A stretch of 64,000 bases of DNA, taken from positions 372,001 to 436,000 of the forward strand of contig JBEWZL010000126.1 of assembly GCA_045837725.1 (NCBI GenBank), in the 5' to 3' direction. Each line of letters opens with the position of its first letter. The first letter of the stretch is position 1. The notes below the pieces were generated by a model. The model searched no databases. It saw nothing but the letters and a program-made list of their open reading frames with translations, and was not told where the DNA came from. The position numbers were made by a program, and so were the translations under genes. Positions 139 to 16,819 of this stretch are shown piece by piece. This stretch comes from Vermamoeba vermiformis (lineage: Eukaryota).

Positions 139-1296
139 TTGAATACCCTCGAGGTTGTGAGGGAAGTTGCGCTCGTCCAACTTAACGGTGTTGTGCTCGA
201 TCCACTCGACCAACTCCTTAGCGCGAGTTTGGAACTCAAGCTTCAACTTTTCAGCGGCTTGAGCGAACTCAATAACGTTGGCGACGTTCTTGGCAGCAGC
301 ATCAGCCTAAAGGTAATATCGTAATTAATAAAAAGATACGTGGCACATTTTCTGAAACGGATGAGACCAAAAGATTTTATCTTTACGAAGTTGAAAATTC
401 ACCATTAATTAAGGCGAACAAATCTAATCTTTTAAATTGCAAGTTTATATCAAAAGATTATAATAATCGAATTTTAGGGATGAAGAAAGATTAATTTTAG
501 GTGTTTAACGACCAGATTTAGAATCGTTACTTAAAGTTGCAAAAGGGTGTTTAACGCTTACCTTGCCGTAAGAAGCAAAGACGTGGTACATGGCAGCAAC
601 GTAGGTCATGATGGAGCGCTCGTCAGGCTTGGGGAGATCGACAATATCCTTAGCGTCCAAGATCTTAGCAATACCGAGGTGCTTCTCAGCAACATCGAAG
701 GCAAGTTCCAAGTTCTCGAGCTTGTTCTCCTTGGACAATGAATCGTAGTCGATCAAGTCGGGGCGGTGCTTGTGAATCAAAGCGCAGAAGGCCAAACCGT
801 CCTGGAAGGACATATGGAAGTTCTGAACATTGACGTCTCTGTAGCCCTTAGTCTTCTTTTGGACCCACAAGAGCAAGGCTTCCTTGGCGGAGAGCTCTTC
901 TTCAGAAATATCTTGAATCTGGAAGCGAAGAATGACGGTCCAAATTAAACCGAGAATCATCTTAGCGTTTTGATCGACAATTTCTTCGGGACCAGTACCA
1001 GGGAGCTTGACACCCTTGCTTTGAATGAACTTCAAGGCAATACCGTTGTTGGTGACTTGCTTGATTCGCATCTTGCCGGGATTCTTCTCGTAGCCGGTAA
1101 TGGTATCGCCGGAAATAACTTCGAGCAACTTAATCAACTTGATACCATCTTGGAAATCAGCGGCGAGATCCTCGATTTTGAGGCCGACTTTGCTGAGGTG
1201 AGAGTTGACCCAACCAGTAAAGGTTTTCTTTTGAATGCGTTCCCAAGTCTTCTCCAAGAGACCAGACGAGCTAACGGCAGTTTGGGTATCGGCCAT
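139..1296 (-). CDS. ACTN: Alpha-actinin (5' part; gene continues beyond the window start)
   Basis: Exon 1 (1296-562) encodes tandem CH domains ([41 protein letters not shown]). After a GT-AG intron, exon 306-139 encodes the start of a spectrin repeat (ADAAAKNV...ELVEWIE) and ends at a gtaag donor. Confidence 0.9.
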
Positions 1297-2013
1297 TTTT
1301 CAAGATTACGTGGTATTCAAGAATGATAAAGAAAAGATAATGCAAAAAAAATGCAGGCTAAATCTTTTTTTTGTGGTCTAATTTTTGCGCACCAAATATT
1401 CGTGAAGGGAAAATTGACGAGCAAGTTGGACTCACAAAGCCCGCAAGAAGATATCGTATTGTGGTCGACTGTAATCTCGCGGGTGTATGGTCGAGTAAAA
1501 GCAAAGATTCTGTGTTTCGATATATCTCGATTCAATCTCCCTTATCAGCTTGGTTAAATATTCCCGTCTTGGACATTTAAGCGACTAGAAGATATGTGGA
1601 GGCATACATGTATCATAAGCGTGAGTTAGCGAACTAAAAAATTGAGGGAGCTAATTTTACCCCTTCCGGATTTAAATTTTGTTTGTATTTATATTCCTAG
1701 GTACGTTGCTGCAACATCGAGATGCCATTCAAAATAACCCGTTTTTTTCAATCAAGAGTAATGTTGCGGATCGCGAAAAGGGACCATACTTTTTAATCAA
1801 AGAAATTCTGTGCTATAACGGGACAAAAGGAGTACTAGCGTTGTGTACTCACAAGCGTGATTAGTGTAAATGACGGCTAACACTCGTCCTCTTATTTTAT
1901 AAAATTTAATTTGCCTCCCTGCTCGGGTTTTCCTTCAATTTTTTTTCAATTACAACTTTGTTATTGAACACATCACAATATTACATACGGACATATAATA
2001 TTATTTATTCGCA

Positions 2014-3165
2014 ATGTCCTTATTTACTGCTAAAGATAAGAAGAAGATCGAGAGCACGGTCAAATCTCTTGCTGAAACATTGAAAGAAATTGGAAAGGAT
2101 AAAAATTCAAAATCACTCGATAAATTAGTAGAAGAGGCAGCAAAAACATTGCAATTATTAAAGAACCAATTTACTGGTGACGCCAATGACCCCAACCAAG
2201 CAGATGCGATTCAGGCAGTTTCCTCCGAGCTGTTGGCCCAGGACATTCCACTGTTATTGATTACGAATTTGGGCAAATTGGACTTCGAGTCAAAGAAAGA
2301 CGCAGCAACAATTTTATGCGCAGTGCTTCGAAAGCAAGTTGGCAACCGCAATCCAGGCGTGGACTATTTTGCCAAGAACCCGACTATCTTGGAGAAGCTG
2401 GTAGAAGGCTATAACAATTCCGAGATATCCATCAACTGCGGAAGTATCCTCAGAGAATGTATTCGACACGAAGCATTGACCGCCCTTTTGATTCAATCCG
2501 AGGCGTTTTTTAAATTTTTTGTGTTTGTGGAGTTACCTAACTTCGATGTGGCCTCTGATGCGTTCCAGACTTTCAAAGAGATGCTCACGAAGCATAAGAC
2601 AATGTCCGCAGAGTTTTTGGAGAAGAACTACGACAAATTGTTCGAGGAGTACACCCGATTGCTGCATTCAGAAAACTATGTCACCAAGAGACAGTCCCTA
2701 AAGCTTCTCGGAGAACTCCTCTTGGATAGGTCGAATTTTAATGTCATGACTAAATACATTTCGCAACAAAAGAACCTCAAATTGATGATGAACTTGCTGC
2801 GCGATAAAAGCCGATCAATTCAATTCGAAGCTTTCCACGTCTTCAAAGTATTCGTGGCTAATCCTAATAAGGTAAGCAGATTATAGCATAAATATATGAA
2901 TAGCATTATTTTAATTGCTCGTCGGTTTATTCCTCACTTACCCGTAACTATTTATTTTAAAATGCTCAAATAATTATAAATCCGCTACAATATTATTCAT
3001 ATTATTCTAACCATTATTTTGCAGCCCAAACCCGTTTTGGACATTCTAATAAAGAACAAAGATAAATTATTGAAATTCTTGAAGACATTCCAATCGGATC
3101 GAGAAGACGAGCAATTCAACGACGAGAAGGCATATTTGATTAAGCAAATTGAACAACTTGCCTAA
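2014..3165 (+). CDS. CAB39: MO25/CAB39 kinase scaffold
   Basis: Exons 2014-2871 and 3025-3165. Motifs FDVASDAF, NYVTKRQSLKLLGELLLDR, IQFEAFHVFKVFVANP and EQFNDEKAYLI. Confidence 0.95.
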
Positions 3166-7462: not shown

Positions 7463-10400
7463 ATGGTGCGATCACAACTTTCTGTGGCCGTTCTCTTGGT
7501 CGTCCTCTCTTGTATTAGCGCAGAATGGGTGACAAAGCACCTTAATAACCCGAGGGCACGAACTACTGCAGCTCAAGTTGGAAACAGAGTCTACATAGCA
7601 GGAGGAGAGATCGACAACCTCGTTGAAACAGATTTGATTGAAGTATTGAATCTGGACACCTTGGAACTCGAACAAAGCAATCTGACGCTAAATACACTCC
7701 GCCAACAATTTACTGCAACGGTTATCGGTTCGAATATTTTTTTTGCTGGTGGATTCTACCACGAACGGACAATCCTCATGTACGATTACCTCACGTCCAA
7801 CTTTACTCGATTGCCTCGCGCTCCTTGGGCTGTAGACGTCAAGCACATCGAGTTTATGAACGACAATAGAACAGTCTACGTTTTCGCGCCAAATACTCTC
7901 GACATCTACCATCGCGACAACAACACTTGGACTACAAATCAAAACTTCCGCTCACTCGTCACTAGCCTGTACCTACCTGGCCTAGCTGTCGTCGAAGGAA
8001 AAGCTTACGTCGTTGGAGGCTACGATGTGATCACGAGAAAGCTTTCGACAAATGCTTACATCTTTGACCTTGCGACCGGTGTAATTACGAAGATGCAAGG
8101 CGTAGTTCTTCCGCAGTACTTCCCAACTGACATGGCCGTGGACTACTCTAGCACTGCCGTTGTCATGTGCCGAGCGTACAACGGCACAGGTAACAGCCAA
8201 ATGTGCAATGTGTACCACAAGCAGAAGCAGCAATGGTTTTCTACGTACTTGGGCATTCAAGGTTCTTCCGTTATCAAGCTTACCATGTGCGCGGTGACGG
8301 ATTATCATGCCTACATCGTGCAAGATCAGGCATCACCAGCTACCGGAAGTGGTCAAGTGATGATCATCAGTCTCGCTGACTTCTCCGTCAACAACTACGC
8401 GAGAAATGATCTCTATGGATCCTACTATGGAGTCACAGCGACTTCAACAAACGCGTTCCTGTTCTCTCGTACGAACGCGGGTGCTGACATACTGATCATC
8501 TTCGATCAGACGAGCAATGTGCTGCAAAATATAACGAACATACCAGGAATGGGTGGCCAATTCCAGCATTACCTCCAACCGTTCATTCCTTGGGGCAATT
8601 CAAGATGTTTCTGGAGCACAGCCGGTATCGTTGGCTGCGTTTCAGCTGCTGGCATGGGAGCAACTCAAGCGCTAAACACCTTTGCTGGGGCTGCAGTGCT
8701 CAACAACCAGTTGTACATCTACGCAGCTGCCGGCAATGGTGTACTCTTTACTAGCTTCAACTCGGCGAGTCTATTAACTGGAGTACCTGGCCCTGTGCTC
8801 GGGGTGTTTGACGATCAAGTGGTTACAACGTCGAGTGTTTATGCCGTTGGAGACACTACTGCTACCGTGATCCGCACAGTTGGTGGCGATGCAATTCCTA
8901 CTAACTCCTCTGTGATCCAACAACGCGGCTCAATTTCGTATGACACGCACATGTTGGCTTTGGATCCAGACACTGTCATCGTTTATCCCAGCACCGTCGA
9001 AGTCTTTGACACTGTCAACAACACGTGGAGCGAGTTTAACTTGCCCAATCTTGCGACTGATAACGTCATATACGCTGGTGCACTCGACAACAACTTGGTG
9101 TTGATCACTGTTGCGAATGTCTTGTTCATCAACTCAACTAGTTACGAGCTCCTCAATACCACCGTCAGTGTTGGTATGCAGCCAGTTTCAACGTGGAAGA
9201 GCAGGACTCACTTGCAACTGCCCGTTTATAACAACATGCTTCTTACTGGCGTCACCAACGGAATTTCGCAGATCAACACCACAAGCACTGTTTCGCTTCC
9301 AGGCAGATCGGAGTCAAGTCCGGTGATTAATCAGCTGCTCATTTACGACAACAAGCTCTTCATCTCTGACGTCTCAGCCAATCAGTTCTACTTCTTCGTG
9401 CTGACCCAGAGCCGTTGGGACGCACGCTTGCTCAGCGGTCGACGCGTGTTCTATTCCATTGCTGCCGTGGACTCCAAAGTGTTCATTCTCGGCGGAAGAA
9501 ACGACGTGACTTTAAGTTCCTATGGTGTTGTGGCTGTAGACTACACGTTCTACTTTGAGTTCAATACGGCCTCGTCCAGTTTGTCCCAACAAATCAACAT
9601 CACTTACCCGCGCTCAGAAATCACACCAATTTCAACTCCCGATGCAGCGATATTTATTGGCGGCAGATCCGCATTGGGCCAATACTTCGATTTGCTCGAG
9701 ATCTACACCAATAGAACGATCATTGTCCCAGCTGAACCAGTTGCTCCAGTAGCTAGTCCTGACCAACCTGCTGCAACTCCTGTCGGCACTATTGCTGGTG
9801 CTGTTGTTGGCAGTGTCGTCGGTGCTGTCGGCATTGGCTTGGGCGTGTTCTTCATTGTACGCGCTAAGAACAAGAAAGCAAAGAAGGCACAGCGCATGGC
9901 GACGATCAGAACGACTGTCAACCTCGACGATGCTATTGCCAAGCACCCGATGTACACTCCATTCGCCGAGATCAAGTTCGGCAAGATGCTCGGTTCAGGT
10001 GCTAACGGCCAAGTCTTTTTGGGCCGTTGGAAGAGCACAGACGTGGCACTCAAAGTCAGCATGTCACAAGCGAACGAAGGATTCATCCAAGAAGTCAATC
10101 TGATGCTTGGCCTGAGACCTCATCCCAATGTGGTTCGTATCTTTGGTTTCAGCATCCATCCTGAGACCCAGAACGTCATCTTGATTCTCGAGTTCTGCGA
10201 CGGAGGTTCACTTGACAACATCTTGTTCGACGATCCCAACGACATTCCCATGGCTAAGAAGCTTGCCTGGATTCAAGGCATTGCCCGTGGTGTCCTGCAC
10301 TTGCAATCAAACAACATTGTTCACCGTGACTTGGCCGCGCGTAACGTGCTGTTGCACAGAGGCGAGGCGAAGATTACGGATTTTGGTATGTCTCGTGTTG

Positions 10401-10797
10401 TTGATGAAGGCAAGAAGGGCACGACTACATCTGATATTGGTCCTATTCGTTGGATGGCCCCTGAATCTATCGCTAACAAAGAGTACTCAACCAAGTCAGG
10501 TACGATGACACGTGTCATTTTTAATTTTAGTTGATGTGAAGGCTAATGTTGTTGATTATAGACGTATGGTCCTTTGCTGTTATTATGTACGAGATTATTT
10601 CAAGACAAGAGCCTCACGTGTCCGGAGATCCTCTCGAAATTGCCGTCAAGATCCGTGACCAAGGTGCCACCCCGGGTATTCCTGAAGATTGCCCCGAACC
10701 TCTGGCGTACATTATGCAACGCTGCTGGCAGAAGGACCCACAAAACAGAGCTACATTCCAAGAGATCACTGATTACCTCGACAAACTCAAGCTTTAA
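7463..10797 (+). CDS. Receptor tyrosine-kinase-like protein with kelch/beta-propeller ectodomain
   Basis: Signal peptide, kelch motifs (VYIAGG, IFFAGG, AYVVGG, VFILGG) and a TM helix (IAGAVVGSVVGAVGIGLGVFFIV). Kinase motifs GSGANG, VALK, HRDLAARN, DFG and GPIRWMAPE. One intron at about 10500-10561. Confidence 0.92.
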
Positions 10798-11201: not shown

Positions 11202-11902
11202 AATAAGATATTTTTAATTATTGTATATAGCATTTGTACGCAATGGCTGCCACATTTGAATTTGTTGGTATGAATCCTTATGTAGATCTCGATTATGATC
11301 AATTTTTCAACATTTTGCGATGATCGCATCTTCGTGCGCATTAATGATATGTAGCGATGGAAATTCGCAGGTGATTACATGGTTAATCTCTGCAGCTGAC
11401 ATCTGGTGACACCAGGTTGGATCCCCAAAAATGGCCCACAATCATTTGACATAACAAAATCACCACGTAAGCGTAACATTCACCAGATTTGATTACATAA
11501 TATCTTTTTGCAAATTGTTGAAAAGCACGCAGATTTTCGAAGGATGCTTTTGATTTGGTTGCCTTTACAGGTAATTTCAACACAGAGTGATACATAGAAT
11601 TAACATAATTTTAATGATGATTTTTAAGGCATTAGGCGAGCAATTAAATCAATTTACGTTGGGTTGCAACTTTCATGAATCTTTGATTCCGTTACAGTGC
11701 TCCTGTAGCCCAACCATTATTGCATATTGCGTATCTAATTTGTTTAAATAAGCGAATCAATTGTTTATCTAAAGTTGATCTGCTTCAGAAATAGCTCGGG
11801 AGTTCCACACCATCTTTTTTTGGCCGTTATTTTCTCCGACGTAGCCAACATTTTTTTGTACGAGAGCCCTCTCAAAGTTCATAACTTAGACGATATAGCA
11901 AC

Positions 11903-14900
11903 ATGAAATCAATTATTTTGATTTTCTTTGTTGGCGCTTTGCTCCTGGATGCTATTGCTGCCCAAGGTAACTCCGATTACTTCGTGTCGATTGATATTAA
12001 CGAAGCAATTCATCGATAGAACCTAGTGCAGAAAGAATATCTATTGTAGGAGTCGGTGCCACATTTCCTCAACCTCTTTACTCTGAATGGTAAGAAAATT
12101 GACCGTTAAGATCTCCATTTAAAAAATTAGAAGAAATATAAGAGCGCCATAACATAATTGATTTATGTTATTTATTTATATTATTTTTGGTCAGGTTTTT
12201 CGCGTACAGTTTGATTAAACCAGATGTCGTGTTTTCCTACACCGGATCTGGCTCCGGTGCTGGTCGCAGAGCTATACGAAGTGGCCTTGTCGATTTCGCT
12301 GGAAGTGATGCGCCATTATCCGCCGCCGATTTACAAGTGGTACGTGAAAAGACCTGGTATTAAAATGATCCACAATAATACGTAGCGATATCAAGCTTCT
12401 ATACTCTATCAATTGAATATATATAATAACATTTCGTTATCCTACGAGTGCGAATTTAAAATAGGAGAACAAATACGAGATCTACTGCATGATCCCCAAA
12501 ACCTTATCAATCGTTTTTTATTTAGAATCCGAACATTGTCCAAGTGCCTTTTCTTGCGGGTGCAGTAGTACCATTTTACAAGATAAGCGCGCTTAACGCA
12601 TCAGATCCCGCCATTATTTTCGAGCGATCAGTTTTGGCCGATATTTTTCGCGGCGTTATAACTAACGTGGAACGACCCTAGAATATTAGCAGACAATCCA
12701 ATCATTGCAAGCAAGCTTCCGAATGCCACAATCAAAGTTGTTTTAAGGTTTGATAATCCATGATCCCAAAAAAATCTCCCGACGGCGAGCTGAATATTTA
12801 TTTTCAGAGCTGAGAGTTCAGGAACAACGAACATCTTTACTTCATTCTTGAGCTCAGTTAGCAGTGAATGGAATTCAACATATGGCACAGTAGATACTTG
12901 GCCTGCTGAAATTCGCAATCAATCAAACTTCCAAACCGCTGATGTACGCCAAAATTAGCATGTGTTCCGTTAAGTAATCTTTAACTTTCCTTATTAGGGA
13001 AGCTTTGGTATTTATGCCCTGGTAGAAAGCACGGACAATTCAATTAGCTACGTGTCTTTATCTTTCCTCGTGGATCAAACCGTAACTTACGGTCAAATGA
13101 TTAACAGAAATGGAAAGGTAGTGCTATTATAATATAATTAATATACTTATATATTGGTTTAAGGTCGTTTCTGCTACATCTGAGTCCGTTCAAGTTGCAA
13201 TGGACACCGCAAAATTCAACTCGCAAAGGGCTGCTTCGATCGTCGATTTGCCCGCAGACACTGCTTGGCCTATTGCTAGCTTTACTTATATCATCGTCGG
13301 AACGAGTAATAGACCCTTATTGAACCATTCATACCGACCAAAATATTCATTATTGCGTTGCAGATATCACCGAAGGCTTCACCAAACGTCGTGAGATGAT
13401 GCGTGCTTTTCGTTGGATGCAAACATCTGAAGCTGCCAGAGCACGTGCCACTAAACAAGGCTACGCGCCTCTGACTGAACAAGTAGCTAGGGACACCGTG
13501 AATGCATTAGCAGCCATTACTGTTGATGGTCAACCGCTCCTCGCAGGTAAGTCCCACACGTGCGAGTGACGGACTTTGCTGACTTGATTCTATCATAGTC
13601 GAGTTGCTACCACAACACGAAGGCGCTGGTTTTAAAACGGTCTTCGGCTTGTCTATAGCCGCATTTGGTATAGCTCTAATTGCGTCAGTGATGTTTATCG
13701 TCATCGGCAAAAAGAACCGCGTACGTAGCACTTCATCATGACACCTCAAAAAGTGTCAGTGTCTGACTTGCTCGCAGGATTTGCCTAGCCTCGAGTACGC
13801 CTTCACCGCAGTCTTGTTCAGCGGGTCTACTTTCATCGCCATATCGTCCATCTTTTGGTACTTGTTGCCGGACAGTGACTACATCTGTCACTTGCGCGTG
13901 TGGTTCTTGACCTTTGGCATGACGTTGATTCTTGCAACCATGTTCTCGCGTACTTGGCTTTATCTTCGAATCTATAATGTGGTGCACGTAAGTTTATTAT
14001 CAAAATTTTTCACGTGCGGATCTGACTACTTTACAGCGCCTCCGTAAATTCAATTACAAAGTGAGATATACGCTCGAATCATTGGCCGGCATGGCTGCAA
14101 CATTAGTATTACAACTTGTAAGTCGATAATATGACAGTTTGGAATTGGATCTAAGATGTTTCGTGCAGGTTATTATGATCGTTTGGCAAGTGATGGATCC
14201 GTATACATCGAGTGTCGCGATCACAGATGACATCAATATCTACGGCAAATATCAGTGTCAGTCTTCGTTAATCACCACCTGGGTCATTGTCGAGCTTGTT
14301 TTCACGGTACGTGAAATTTCACACCTTCGCAACCACGTCGCGGATACTGATTATATGATATTATAGGGTGCGATTTTAGTATGGGGTGTGTATGTCGTGT
14401 ACCAAGCGTGGGAATTGCGTCAAAAAGCAAGAGATTCGAAGTGGCTGTTGATCGGCATTTACAACTTCATCGTGGCAATCTGCGTGCTGGTGCCACTTGT
14501 CGCGACATCAGTGGATGTGGACGATGATATGTTGTTCTATATCATAGTGTGCGGTATAGTCTTCATCAATGTGAGCACTATCTTGTGCGTCTACATTCCC
14601 AAATTGTTCGTGCAATACAAGTCGTTCTCGAGTGGTCGCACTTCTCGCGTGGTCAGCATGGGCGAAATTTCAACGGTACGTACAATAAGCATTACCTAAA
14701 ATATATATCTATACGAAAAATGCAATATTATACAAGTGTTATATATATTCGGCGTAATGGTATCCTGGTTCGTGAGATTCAGAAATTATGTACCAAGATC
14801 CGGATCTTTGCATTGAAATTCTTCTCTCATTATCTTGTCTTACTATTATAATATAAACTATTTGCTGGTTTTGGACAATGTATCTAATATAGGTTTTTAT

Positions 14901-15174
14901 TTTTAAGGCACAAACTCCGGATGCCCCCAAGAACCTCCGCAAATCCGCCACCAATTCAGCCGTTGCACCTGCGCCTACCAATCAGAACAGTCAGGGCAAT
15001 CAAAGCAATCAGAGCAATCAAAGCAGCAACAAATATCCGAGTATGCCTTCGACGAACTCTGACAAACACGAGAGTTATCCCGCTTCTGAGACACCGAACG
15101 GATCTAATAAGAGCAGCAAGTCATCTTCAACATCCTCGTCGAATTCTTCATCGAGTTCGTCAAAAGATGATTAA
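11903..15174 (+). CDS. PstS-type phosphate-binding ectodomain fused to a class C (family 3) GPCR 7TM; 1-nt frameshift at about 12665
   Basis: Signal peptide MKSIILIFFVGALLLDAIAAQ. PstS motifs GVGATFPQPLYSEW, GSGSGAG, VDFAGSDAPL, WNDPRI, RAESSGTTNIFT, WPIASFTY and GYAPL. Seven hydrophobic segments with class C motifs ICHLRVWFLTFG..MFSRTW, WQVMDP, DSKWLLIGIYN and YIPK. Ser-rich tail. All joined by GT-AG introns. Confidence 0.85.
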
Positions 15175-15245
15175 TAAGTACCATAATATATAATTATATA
15201 ATAATAATGTAAATTAGAGTTAGAAAGAGAATTAAAATAATTAAT

Positions 15246-16819
15246 TTATTCGTCGTCAATCACCAAAATATCTTTCGTAGTGTCATTTAATATGCTCTTA
15301 TTCGTATTATTCATATTATTACTATTATCATCGCTAGTCATTATTATATCATCATTCTTGTCCTCTTTAACTTCTTCCATTTCAACTTTTGCATCGACAT
15401 TATTATTGTTATTTTTGCTGTTATTGTTGTTATTATTCACATTTTGTTTCTTATTCGGGTTAAATATGAACTCATCCAATGAGGGTCGCTTCTTTTTGAT
15501 TGGTGAATTTGACGCCACAAACGGCTTGTGAAATGCATCGTACAATCTTCGCACTCGTTTTTCACCGAGTCCAGGACACAAACTCAGCTGTTCTATTGGC
15601 GCGGTCATAATAGCTTTCAGGGACTACAGCATCGATTAATTTTATCAATTTTATTATTATTTTCAGTGAAAATGGACTTACGCCAATGTTCTGTTGCAAA
15701 CTGGCCACATTTCTTTTGTTGATCGATCGAACGGCAGTTAAACAGTCCGTAAGCTATAATATAGTATATTATTATTATATATGCACTATACTTAATTAGG
15801 GTATTATTATAATGTTTACCTGGGCTTCGTAATCGTCTTTGACCTGTTCTTTAATGGTGTCTGCTGACTTGCCTTCCAATGCTTTATAGGTCTCTAAATA
15901 TCGCGCGACTTCTAAATTACTATAATGTGTATAGTATATTAGTATTAATAGGACTAATATCGTGACAACATCGGAACTAGATCCGACCCAAATATTTTTT
16001 CAAAAATTCTTGTAGGTGACATTAACGCAATATTCGGATTTAAATTGGTATATGAAAGTATATACTAAAGGGTGTATATATATGCATAGTAATTACCTCC
16101 AAGCCACAATCAGGGTCAAATTGGATGCGATGCAAAGTTTGTTGAGTTGTCGGAGAGGTACAGCATTCTCATCAGTATCAACGAGGCATAATAATACGCG
16201 TAGTCTATATTTAGCCGGAATATCTTTTAAACGGCGCAATAGATAGTCGCCATTGAGTAAATGATAGCGTAGACTGGATCCGATCGAAAAATAAAATGAT
16301 TAGAGAATAAAATATATGAAAATGATAGGTAGTTATATAAATATTACCTTAAAAATAGGCCGCAACCTGTAGAGCCGAAATGGTAGTCAGGCACAAGCTG
16401 TGGATCGAACTCGAACTTGACATTTTTGATAAATTTTACAACAGGGTTGCCGCGCTGGAAAAAATAAAATTAATTAATTGTGGGCATTATTAGGCACTGC
16501 AAAAATTGGTAAAAATATTCCCGTAATTTCTCGATTATTTTTTTAAAAGTTGAAAAATTCTCTCTTACCTGGCGCTCGCTTATATATAATACATTTGGTA
16601 CATATTTAATTGGCATAGTATTTACAAGTGGTTTTCTGTGGAAAGAAATGTTATTGCTATCAGATCAAGTTCGAACACGTACTTTACAAATCCAGCCTTC
16701 GGCGATGCGATGGGAGGTGCGGGTGCTGCATTAATATTATACACTACAGGTGGCTTCACATTGTTTGTATTAATAGCTGGTTTTGGTGGATCTGTGTTGT
16801 GGTTGTCTTTCTCGCTCAT
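15246..16819 (-). CDS. ERCC1: DNA excision repair protein ERCC1/Rad10
   Basis: Spliced QRGNPVVKFI, LFLSLRYHLL, TLIVAWS..EVARYLETYK and the HhH motif LCPGLGEKRVRRLYDAFHKPF, followed by a poly-Asn tail. Confidence 0.93.

Follow-up and report, generated by a model that had tools for sequence, protein, structure and literature searches.

A candidate phosphate receptor gene of Vermamoeba vermiformis that joins a PstS-type ectodomain to a GABA-B-like class C seven-transmembrane domain

Bacterial-type binding domains joined to the seven-transmembrane (7TM) domain of G-protein-coupled receptors (GPCRs) of class C have already been listed from eukaryotes. In the retrieved parts of these sources, Krishnan et al. 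(2012) place PBP_like_2 on SPPG_06488, a Glutamate-family receptor of Spizellomyces punctatus, list further fusions with LysR_substrate, OpuAC, SBP_bac_1 and BMP, and assign these periplasmic-binding-protein (PBP) fusions to Pfam clan CL0177 and type I ANF_receptor to clan CL0144 (PMC3251606). Rolfe et al. (2016) report seven Plasmodiophora brassicae proteins that combine 7tm3 with solute-binding-protein (SBP) or PBP domains, which they interpret as putative transporters (PMC4815078), and a survey of GPCRs in Amoebozoa carries PBP_like_2 in its domain key (PMC10445921). For phosphate itself, a direct response of the calcium-sensing receptor (CaSR) to the extracellular ion is described in the retrieved portion of Centeno et al. 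(2019) (PMC6795806). We analyzed a 64,000-nt stretch of Vermamoeba vermiformis DNA (assembly GCA_045837725.1, contig JBEWZL010000126.1, positions 372,001–436,000, forward strand; hereafter the window, in whose coordinates all positions are given) and describe the gene at 11903–15174 (+). We read it, with a probability of roughly 0.6, as an expressed gene for a class C, GABA-B-like surface receptor that has a PstS-type (type II) phosphate-binding protein for its ectodomain in place of the usual type I Venus flytrap.

The gene is a further member of a catalogued architecture and not a new kind of gene. The preliminary description of this stretch, made from its letters alone, had raised the possibility that the architecture was novel; this does not hold, given the listings for Spizellomyces in 2012 (PMC3251606) and Plasmodiophora in 2016 (PMC4815078), as far as the retrieved texts go, and given a large eukaryotic family of such proteins. 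The PBP + 7tm3 receptors of both organisms show the same domain order and domain families as the window gene and appear in those texts as survey listings without function. No functional study of a PstS-type GPCR was found in the literature covered, the supplementary gene lists of PMC3251606, PMC4815078 and PMC10445921 excepted. CaSR, likewise of class C and reported to be phosphate-responsive, has its anion sites in a type I flytrap, where phosphate acts as an inhibitor or modulator according to the retrieved part of that work, whereas the window protein would use a PstS pocket as its orthosteric site.

Short introns interrupt the coding DNA of this eukaryotic region. The receptor gene runs from an ATG at 11903–11905 to a TAA stop at 15172–15174, exactly the limits given in the preliminary description, and comprises 14 exons separated by 13 introns of 46–232 nt, all 13 of which are of the GT..AG type. 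The spliced product counts 735 residues when one C, at 12666, is omitted. It opens with a hydrophobic leader and a PstS-like domain (about 330 residues), from which a short stalk leads to seven hydrophobic helices and then a tail rich in Ser, Asn and Gln; the resemblance of the leader to a signal peptide was judged by eye. All motifs named beforehand were found again (GATF, GSG(SG), GSDA(P), R-A-E-S-S-G-T, SRTW, the cysteines of transmembrane helix 3 (TM3) and extracellular loop 2 (ECL2), DSKW..IYN and IPK). The "complete PstS-like domain" claimed with them stands for the gene once the C at 12666 is omitted, and fails for the letters as assembled, in which exon 4 is out of frame. The exons and the extra base are as follows.

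11903–11966 (+): exon 1, start codon followed by a hydrophobic leader of 21 residues that resembles a signal peptide; its split codon is finished in exon 2
12020–12089 (+): exon 2, beginning of the PstS-like domain, with the motif G-A-T-F-P (T36 = PstS T10, F37 = PstS F11)
12195–12339 (+): exon 3, GSGSG (S65 = PstS S38) and GSDAP (D83 = PstS D56); PBP_like_2 match
12526–12747 (+): exon 4, with the family-invariant W141 (WNDP motif); one extra base breaks the frame
12666–12666 (+): extra C, which shifts the frame; when omitted, the reading is I-T-K-W-N-D-P as in the database protein P0001 (see below)
12808–12943 (+): exon 5, R167-A-E169-S-S171-G172-T173, corresponding to PstS R135, D137, S139, G140 and T141
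12998–13117 (+): exon 6, further part of the PstS-like domain
13164–13305 (+): exon 7, further part of the PstS-like domain
13364–13546 (+): exon 8, end of the PstS-like domain (its C-terminal helices) and stalk; F305 and V353 at positions of family cysteines
13599–13720 (+): exon 9, stalk and TM1
13778–13987 (+): exon 10, TM2 and TM3, including the SRTW motif and Cys438, which is conserved; 7tm_3 match
14037–14117 (+): exon 11, intracellular loop 2 and start of TM4
14169–14306 (+): exon 12, remainder of TM4, ECL2 beta-hairpin with Cys528, start of TM5
14367–14675 (+): exon 13, TM5–TM7 with DSKW, IYN and IPK, start of the tail; 7tm_3 match
14908–15174 (+): exon 14, Ser/Asn/Gln-rich tail, predicted to be disordered, ending in TAA

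A search with exon 13 retrieved a database protein of 725 aa, referred to here as P0001, which aligns with the spliced product from end to end, with 596 of 739 columns identical (81%). No gap falls at any exon junction, and the gaps are confined to the low-complexity tail. The precomputed Pfam domains of P0001 are PF00003 and PF12849, and its source name is "phosphate transport system substrate-binding protein".

Four sets of reads or contigs were mapped on 11500–15600: the raw RNA reads X19 and X21, the DNA-like contigs X2, which bear the same organism label, and the RNA-like contigs X5, which bear another. No run listed is recorded as RNA, and X5 was judged to be RNA-like. Seven X5 contigs were placed, four at ≥99% likeness and three at 95–99%. 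Their GT..AG joints match 7 of the 13 introns (1, 3, 4, 7, 8, 9 and 13), the joint at intron 13 having 15 bridging letters that fit 14909–14923 with one mismatch, and intron 2 has the support of a loose end at 12091 that continues with the opening letters of exon 3. A single X5 contig of 378 nt comprises the last 40 nt of exon 8 and exon 9 and continues into exon 10. The end of the PstS part and TM1–TM3 are on one spliced RNA molecule in this contig, the single mRNA presumed in the preliminary description. The receptor gene is real, expressed and well conserved. Separately, the X2 contigs show two forms at about half depth each at many intron positions (e.g., 12120, 12440, 14710 and 14740), which suggests two haplotypes or strains in the X2 sample; the window differs from both forms at some sites.

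Both domains were already detectable in single exons. In a Pfam scan of ten individual exons, exon 3 matched PBP_like_2 (E = 6.4e-6, 26.5 bits; gathering score 27), and exons 10 and 13 matched 7tm_3 (E = 1.8e-8, 34.8 bits and E = 1.2e-10, 42 bits, respectively; both above the gathering score of 33.5). The other seven exons gave no relevant match, as expected for pieces of 22–60 residues. Scanned at full length, P0001 matched PBP_like_2 with E = 4.2e-29 and scored 235.7 bits on the PstS equivalog model TIGR00975 (cut-off 205), a score that belongs to P0001, 81% identical to the window product, and not to the window product itself. NF008171 (PRK10918) was not passed by P0001 (162 bits vs 339). 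The window's own spliced protein, with an X at the break, reached 337 bits with a profile that we derived from 38 stand-alone PstS-like proteins, positions 5–350 of 350 being covered. Against PDB sequences, residues 28–346 of P0001 matched Yersinia PstS (2z22) with E = 7e-42 and E. coli PstS with E = 1.3e-39. ANF_receptor, the type I Venus flytrap, was not matched in the ectodomain in the Pfam and NCBIfam searches of P0001, which returned PBP_like_2/PstS there; the type I flytrap characterizes the animal subfamilies of class C and is no defining trait of the 7TM family. A tblastn search of the window with P0001 returned only the receptor gene, and no PstC, PstA or PstB partner was found beside it. 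Because the domain is fused to a 7TM part and only this gene was matched in the window, we regard it as a PstS-derived domain and not as a PstS transporter subunit.

The predicted structure agrees with the profiles. An AlphaFold2 model of P0001, built from an 86-row alignment (mean predicted local distance difference test score (pLDDT) 87.3, predicted TM-score (pTM) 0.79), has an ectodomain with a two-lobed type II periplasmic-binding-protein fold. In Foldseek comparisons, this modeled ectodomain superposed on 5wnn, 9k3x_E, 2z22 and 2abh with target TM-scores of 0.90–0.92 and root-mean-square deviations (rmsd) of 2.0–2.5 Å over about 330 columns.

The membrane part is that of a class C receptor closest to GABA-B. 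P0001 matched 7tm_3 with E = 3.7e-31 and 109.1 bits over profile positions 12–251 of 251. Among PDB sequences, its 7TM part matched GABA-B chains with E = 5.5e-20 and GB2 with E = 1e-17, and mGlu4 far more weakly (E = 3e-5). Exon 13 alone matched a GABA-B receptor (E = 3e-5), with DSKW aligned to DSRY, IYN to IYN and IPK to VPK, and exon 10 alone gave no match to PDB sequences. The model of P0001 contains seven helices (370–399, 405–429, 435–473, 479–507, 533–559, 567–592 and 597–635) and a beta-hairpin in ECL2, and Foldseek directed its membrane part to GABA-B (7eb2_D and 7c7q_B). The TM3–ECL2 cysteine pair, Cys438 and Cys528, is present in the window protein and invariant in the 38 members of the family set described below. 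From residue 643 onward, pLDDT is below 50 in the P0001 model, and the tail is predicted to be disordered. A homodimer prediction with two copies of ectodomain residues 22–365 scored 0.04 (mark 0.42) and bears neither way on dimerization.

The metazoan GABA-B receptor (GB1/GB2) is the best solved match to the 7TM part, and the two are alike in having a short stalk without a cysteine-rich domain (about 25 residues here), in keeping the TM3–ECL2 cysteines, and in their DS[KR], YN and [IV]PK motifs, which align. They differ in the ectodomain, which is a type II PBP (CL0177) in the window protein and a type I ANF_receptor Venus flytrap (CL0144) in GABA-B, following the clan assignment in the retrieved part of PMC3251606. 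The heterodimerization and coiled-coil tails of GABA-B were also not seen here, where the tail is of low complexity. Both domain assignments of the preliminary description, a PstS-type ectodomain and a GABA-B-like class C 7TM, were therefore upheld by the profiles (PBP_like_2 in exon 3, 7tm_3 in exons 10 and 13, and all three models, including TIGR00975, in P0001), by the best PDB matches and by the predicted superposition on PstS.

Nine residues, which we take from E. coli PstS work to be the phosphate contacts, were located by counting on the alignment of P0001 with 2z22 and carried to the window protein through its alignment with P0001.

PstS T10: T36 in the window protein, identical
PstS F11: F37 in the window protein, identical
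PstS S38: S65 in the window protein, identical
PstS D56: D83 in the window protein, identical
PstS R135: R167 in the window protein, identical
PstS D137: E169 in the window protein, changed from D to E
PstS S139: S171 in the window protein, identical
PstS G140: G172 in the window protein, identical
PstS T141: T173 in the window protein, identical

Eight of the nine predicted phosphate contacts are identical to PstS and D137 is replaced by E, the same pattern that had been read from the letters beforehand. D56 is the PstS residue that rejects sulfate. According to their titles, PstS entries in the PDB include phosphate-bound mutants of D56 and D137. Compared with bacterial PstS (2z22, 1ixh and 9k3x), the window protein is predicted to have the same fold (TM-score 0.92, rmsd about 2 Å) and keeps the contacts except for D137E. 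Unlike the PstS of PstSCAB, it is tethered to a 7TM domain instead of being soluble or lipid-anchored, and its gene is eukaryotic and intron-rich.

Word-based protein searches were insensitive (one match with exon 13 and seven with P0001), and an exhaustive search with P0001 was used to define the family, yielding 10,688 representatives at E ≤ 1e-3, of which 652 reached E ≤ 1e-30. The family set comprises 38 proteins, namely P0001 and 37 picked from the best 150 matches, each with a single matched stretch across both halves; very long multi-domain proteins and PstS-only or 7TM-only matches were excluded. At least 37 clusters at 50% identity carry the PstS-type plus 7tm_3 architecture. Within the set, 7tm_3 was found in 38/38 and PBP_like_2 in 37/38 members, the positions I133, W141, C353, C438 and C528 are invariant, and C305 is present in 37/38. 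The very long relatives P0008, P0022, P0029, P0034, P0052, P0062, P0064 and P0072 (1118–2386 aa), in which the PstS part was matched in three to four separate stretches, are made up of PstS-like domains in tandem. In the ESM Atlas, the nearest cluster of the same architecture is mostly from Discosea, and Atlas clusters were also found for Chlorophyta. A metagenome scan with P0001 kept 80 loci, all PstS-like at 23–40% identity, and did not recover the contig encoding P0001.

A tree of 80 ectodomains (quick maximum likelihood, unrooted, with rows without taxa and several long branches) gathered 38 of its 40 stand-alone rows into a single starred clade (SH-aLRT 97), opposite all fusion ectodomains, among which the window protein was located. 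The two exceptions, P0035 and P0082, look like truncated fusion proteins. The fusion or stand-alone label changes three times on this tree, compared with a mean of 27 when the labels were shuffled. This pattern of sequence relationships is compatible with a single origin of the fused ectodomain.

A mechanism can be proposed for such a receptor. Orthophosphate would be clamped between the two PstS lobes and would close them. The membrane-proximal lobe, presumably the one that holds the C-terminus of the chain as in PstS topology, would be tied to TM1 via the stalk of about 25 residues, such that closure would move the stalk and ECL2 and reposition the 7TM bundle. The 7TM domain, probably within a dimer, would activate a heterotrimeric G protein, and the Ser-rich disordered tail may be a target of phosphorylation and desensitization. 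The receptor would report extracellular phosphate to the probable amoebozoan cell, for nutrient status or chemotaxis. Our proposal for its role is more tentative, and we place it a little short of even odds: the gene would encode a dedicated extracellular orthophosphate GPCR in a free-living amoeboid eukaryote, with a PstS clamp that would operate a class C 7TM domain and guide phosphate-dependent behavior, such as chemotaxis to phosphate or phosphate-rich prey or a starvation program.

Several observations weigh against an intact phosphate receptor, some concerning the ligand and others the integrity of the gene. Among the 25 family members that could be scored, i.e., those with residues at all nine site columns, the full phosphate site is kept under a permissive rule in only six; four more keep eight of the nine positions, and others have wholly diverged. 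Judging from these residues, the PstS-7TM family as a whole is not a family of phosphate sensors, and the window protein belongs to its conservative minority. The family appears to have diversified its ligands, because so few of its scorable members keep the full site. The alternative that survives best, though we consider it unlikely, is a working receptor whose ligand is not free orthophosphate, for example arsenate, phosphite, phosphonate, pyrophosphate or a phosphorylated compound, whether a molecule of the bacterial surface or a prey cue. It draws on the 19 of 25 scorable members without the full phosphate set, on the E in place of D137 in the window protein itself, and on another amoebozoan class C receptor that is reported, in the retrieved part of the source, to recognize folate and lipopolysaccharide (PMC5969738). 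It has to contend with the hydrogen-bonding positions of the window protein, all eight of which, including D56, are the same as in PstS, with the score of P0001 above the cut-off of the PstS equivalog model, and with a pocket-forming fold predicted to superpose at about 2 Å. Within the PBP_like_2 + 7tm_3 family, the window protein is set apart by a complete phosphate site, as in 6 of 25 members, combined with the absence of the Cys305/Cys353 pair.

That absence is one of two points that bear on whether the gene is intact. The window protein has F305 and V353 where 37/38 and 38/38 family members, respectively, have cysteine; it contains no cysteine in its ectodomain, and P0001 keeps both. The loss of both could reflect relaxed constraint. 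The paired loss suggests that Cys305 and Cys353 form a disulfide near the stalk that has been dispensed with in this lineage. The other point is that the window as assembled is frameshifted in the PstS part. In exon 4, the first frame reads G-V-I-T-N and meets a stop about 12 nt beyond 12666; PstS-like sequence (W-N-D-P-R-I) resumes in the +1 frame after the break. No GT..AG pair was found between the two exon 4 frames in the window sequence, so splicing cannot explain the break. A 15-nt GT..AG "micro-intron" at 12667–12681 was considered and rejected against P0001; it reopens the frame but yields a non-PstS reading.

A recent pseudogene in this genome, with a real frameshift at 12666 and a protein truncated after about 144 residues, would fit the break and the loss of both near-invariant cysteines. 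We regard it as rather improbable, in view of the contigs, the substitutions and the rest of the gene. A 427-nt X2 contig (12515–12942), with the same organism label, lacks the base at 12666 (depth 456.6 of 456.6, one contig), and no X2 contig carrying the extra C was seen. This contig also departs from the window at two other positions, 12784 and 12892, and may therefore represent another allele or strain; the X5 contigs have zero depth at 12666. The raw RNA reads X19 and X21 (labeled organism A) were also of limited help for the receptor gene: 43 and 65 reads, respectively, were placed at 90–99% likeness, few of them on the receptor gene and most on its neighbor. They are probably from a diverged relative and provide no measure of expression here. 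Among the differences listed between the window and X2 or X5, 8/8 exonic substitutions are synonymous; neither the 13 splice sites nor any other codon is disrupted, and spliced RNA contigs exist at 95–100% likeness. Because X2 lacks the base and 8/8 of the listed substitutions are synonymous, the break at 12666 most likely stems from an error in the assembly or is restricted to a single allele, rather than marking a dead gene. Purifying selection acts on the receptor gene, of which there is an intact version. Through a one-base error or variant of this kind, automatic annotation would overlook the gene or cut it short.

To our knowledge, no class C 7TM domain transports solutes. A nutrient transporter or transceptor in place of a G-protein receptor, as proposed for the Plasmodiophora 7tm3 + SBP/PBP proteins that Rolfe et al. 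(2016) label "novel putative transporters" in the retrieved part of their text (PMC4815078), is very improbable in view of the 7tm_3 and solved GABA-B matches, which extend over the seven helices and bring the DS[KR]..YN and PK motifs into register, and of the lack of similarity to the PstC/PstA permease family PF00528, which occurs in other matches (P0004 and P0006).

The surroundings of the receptor gene were also surveyed. Its convergent neighbor at 15246–15623 (-) ends 72 nt past the receptor stop; the last exon of this neighbor has a helix-hairpin-helix match (HHH_5, E = 6e-4) after an Asn-rich low-complexity run, and the neighbor is covered by raw RNA reads from X19 and X21 with 90–95% likeness. 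On the other side, an intron-less open reading frame of 1023 codons at 7463–10534 (+) encodes Kelch repeats followed by a TKL-type kinase (PK_Tyr_Ser-Thr, E = 1.3e-44), an architecture typical of amoebozoans. A Mo25 (calcium-binding protein 39) gene is located at 1999–2886 (+) (E = 1.2e-106), with dictyostelids as its best named relatives (57–60% identity) and animals close behind, and a protein with tandem calponin-homology domains is encoded at 505–1299 (-). Together with the mostly Discosea Atlas cluster, the Mo25 and Kelch–TKL genes suggest an amoebozoan other than a dictyostelid. Between 22000 and 24500, the + strand is strongly purine-rich (GC skew 0.22, AT skew 0.37) and contains imperfect tandem units of 21, 24 and 27 nt rich in GAA/GAG/CGC, probably a coding repeat rich in Glu, Arg and Lys.

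How eukaryotes sense extracellular phosphate is still poorly understood. If the proposed role is true, a type II binding protein can run the class C activation mechanism, and eukaryotes have a direct surface sensor of phosphate, which has long been sought. A specific bacterial phosphate clamp on a GABA-B-type receptor, with its contacts intact, makes the question of sensing directly testable. The value of the gene is not that of a new architecture but that of a good experimental candidate for a eukaryotic surface phosphate sensor.

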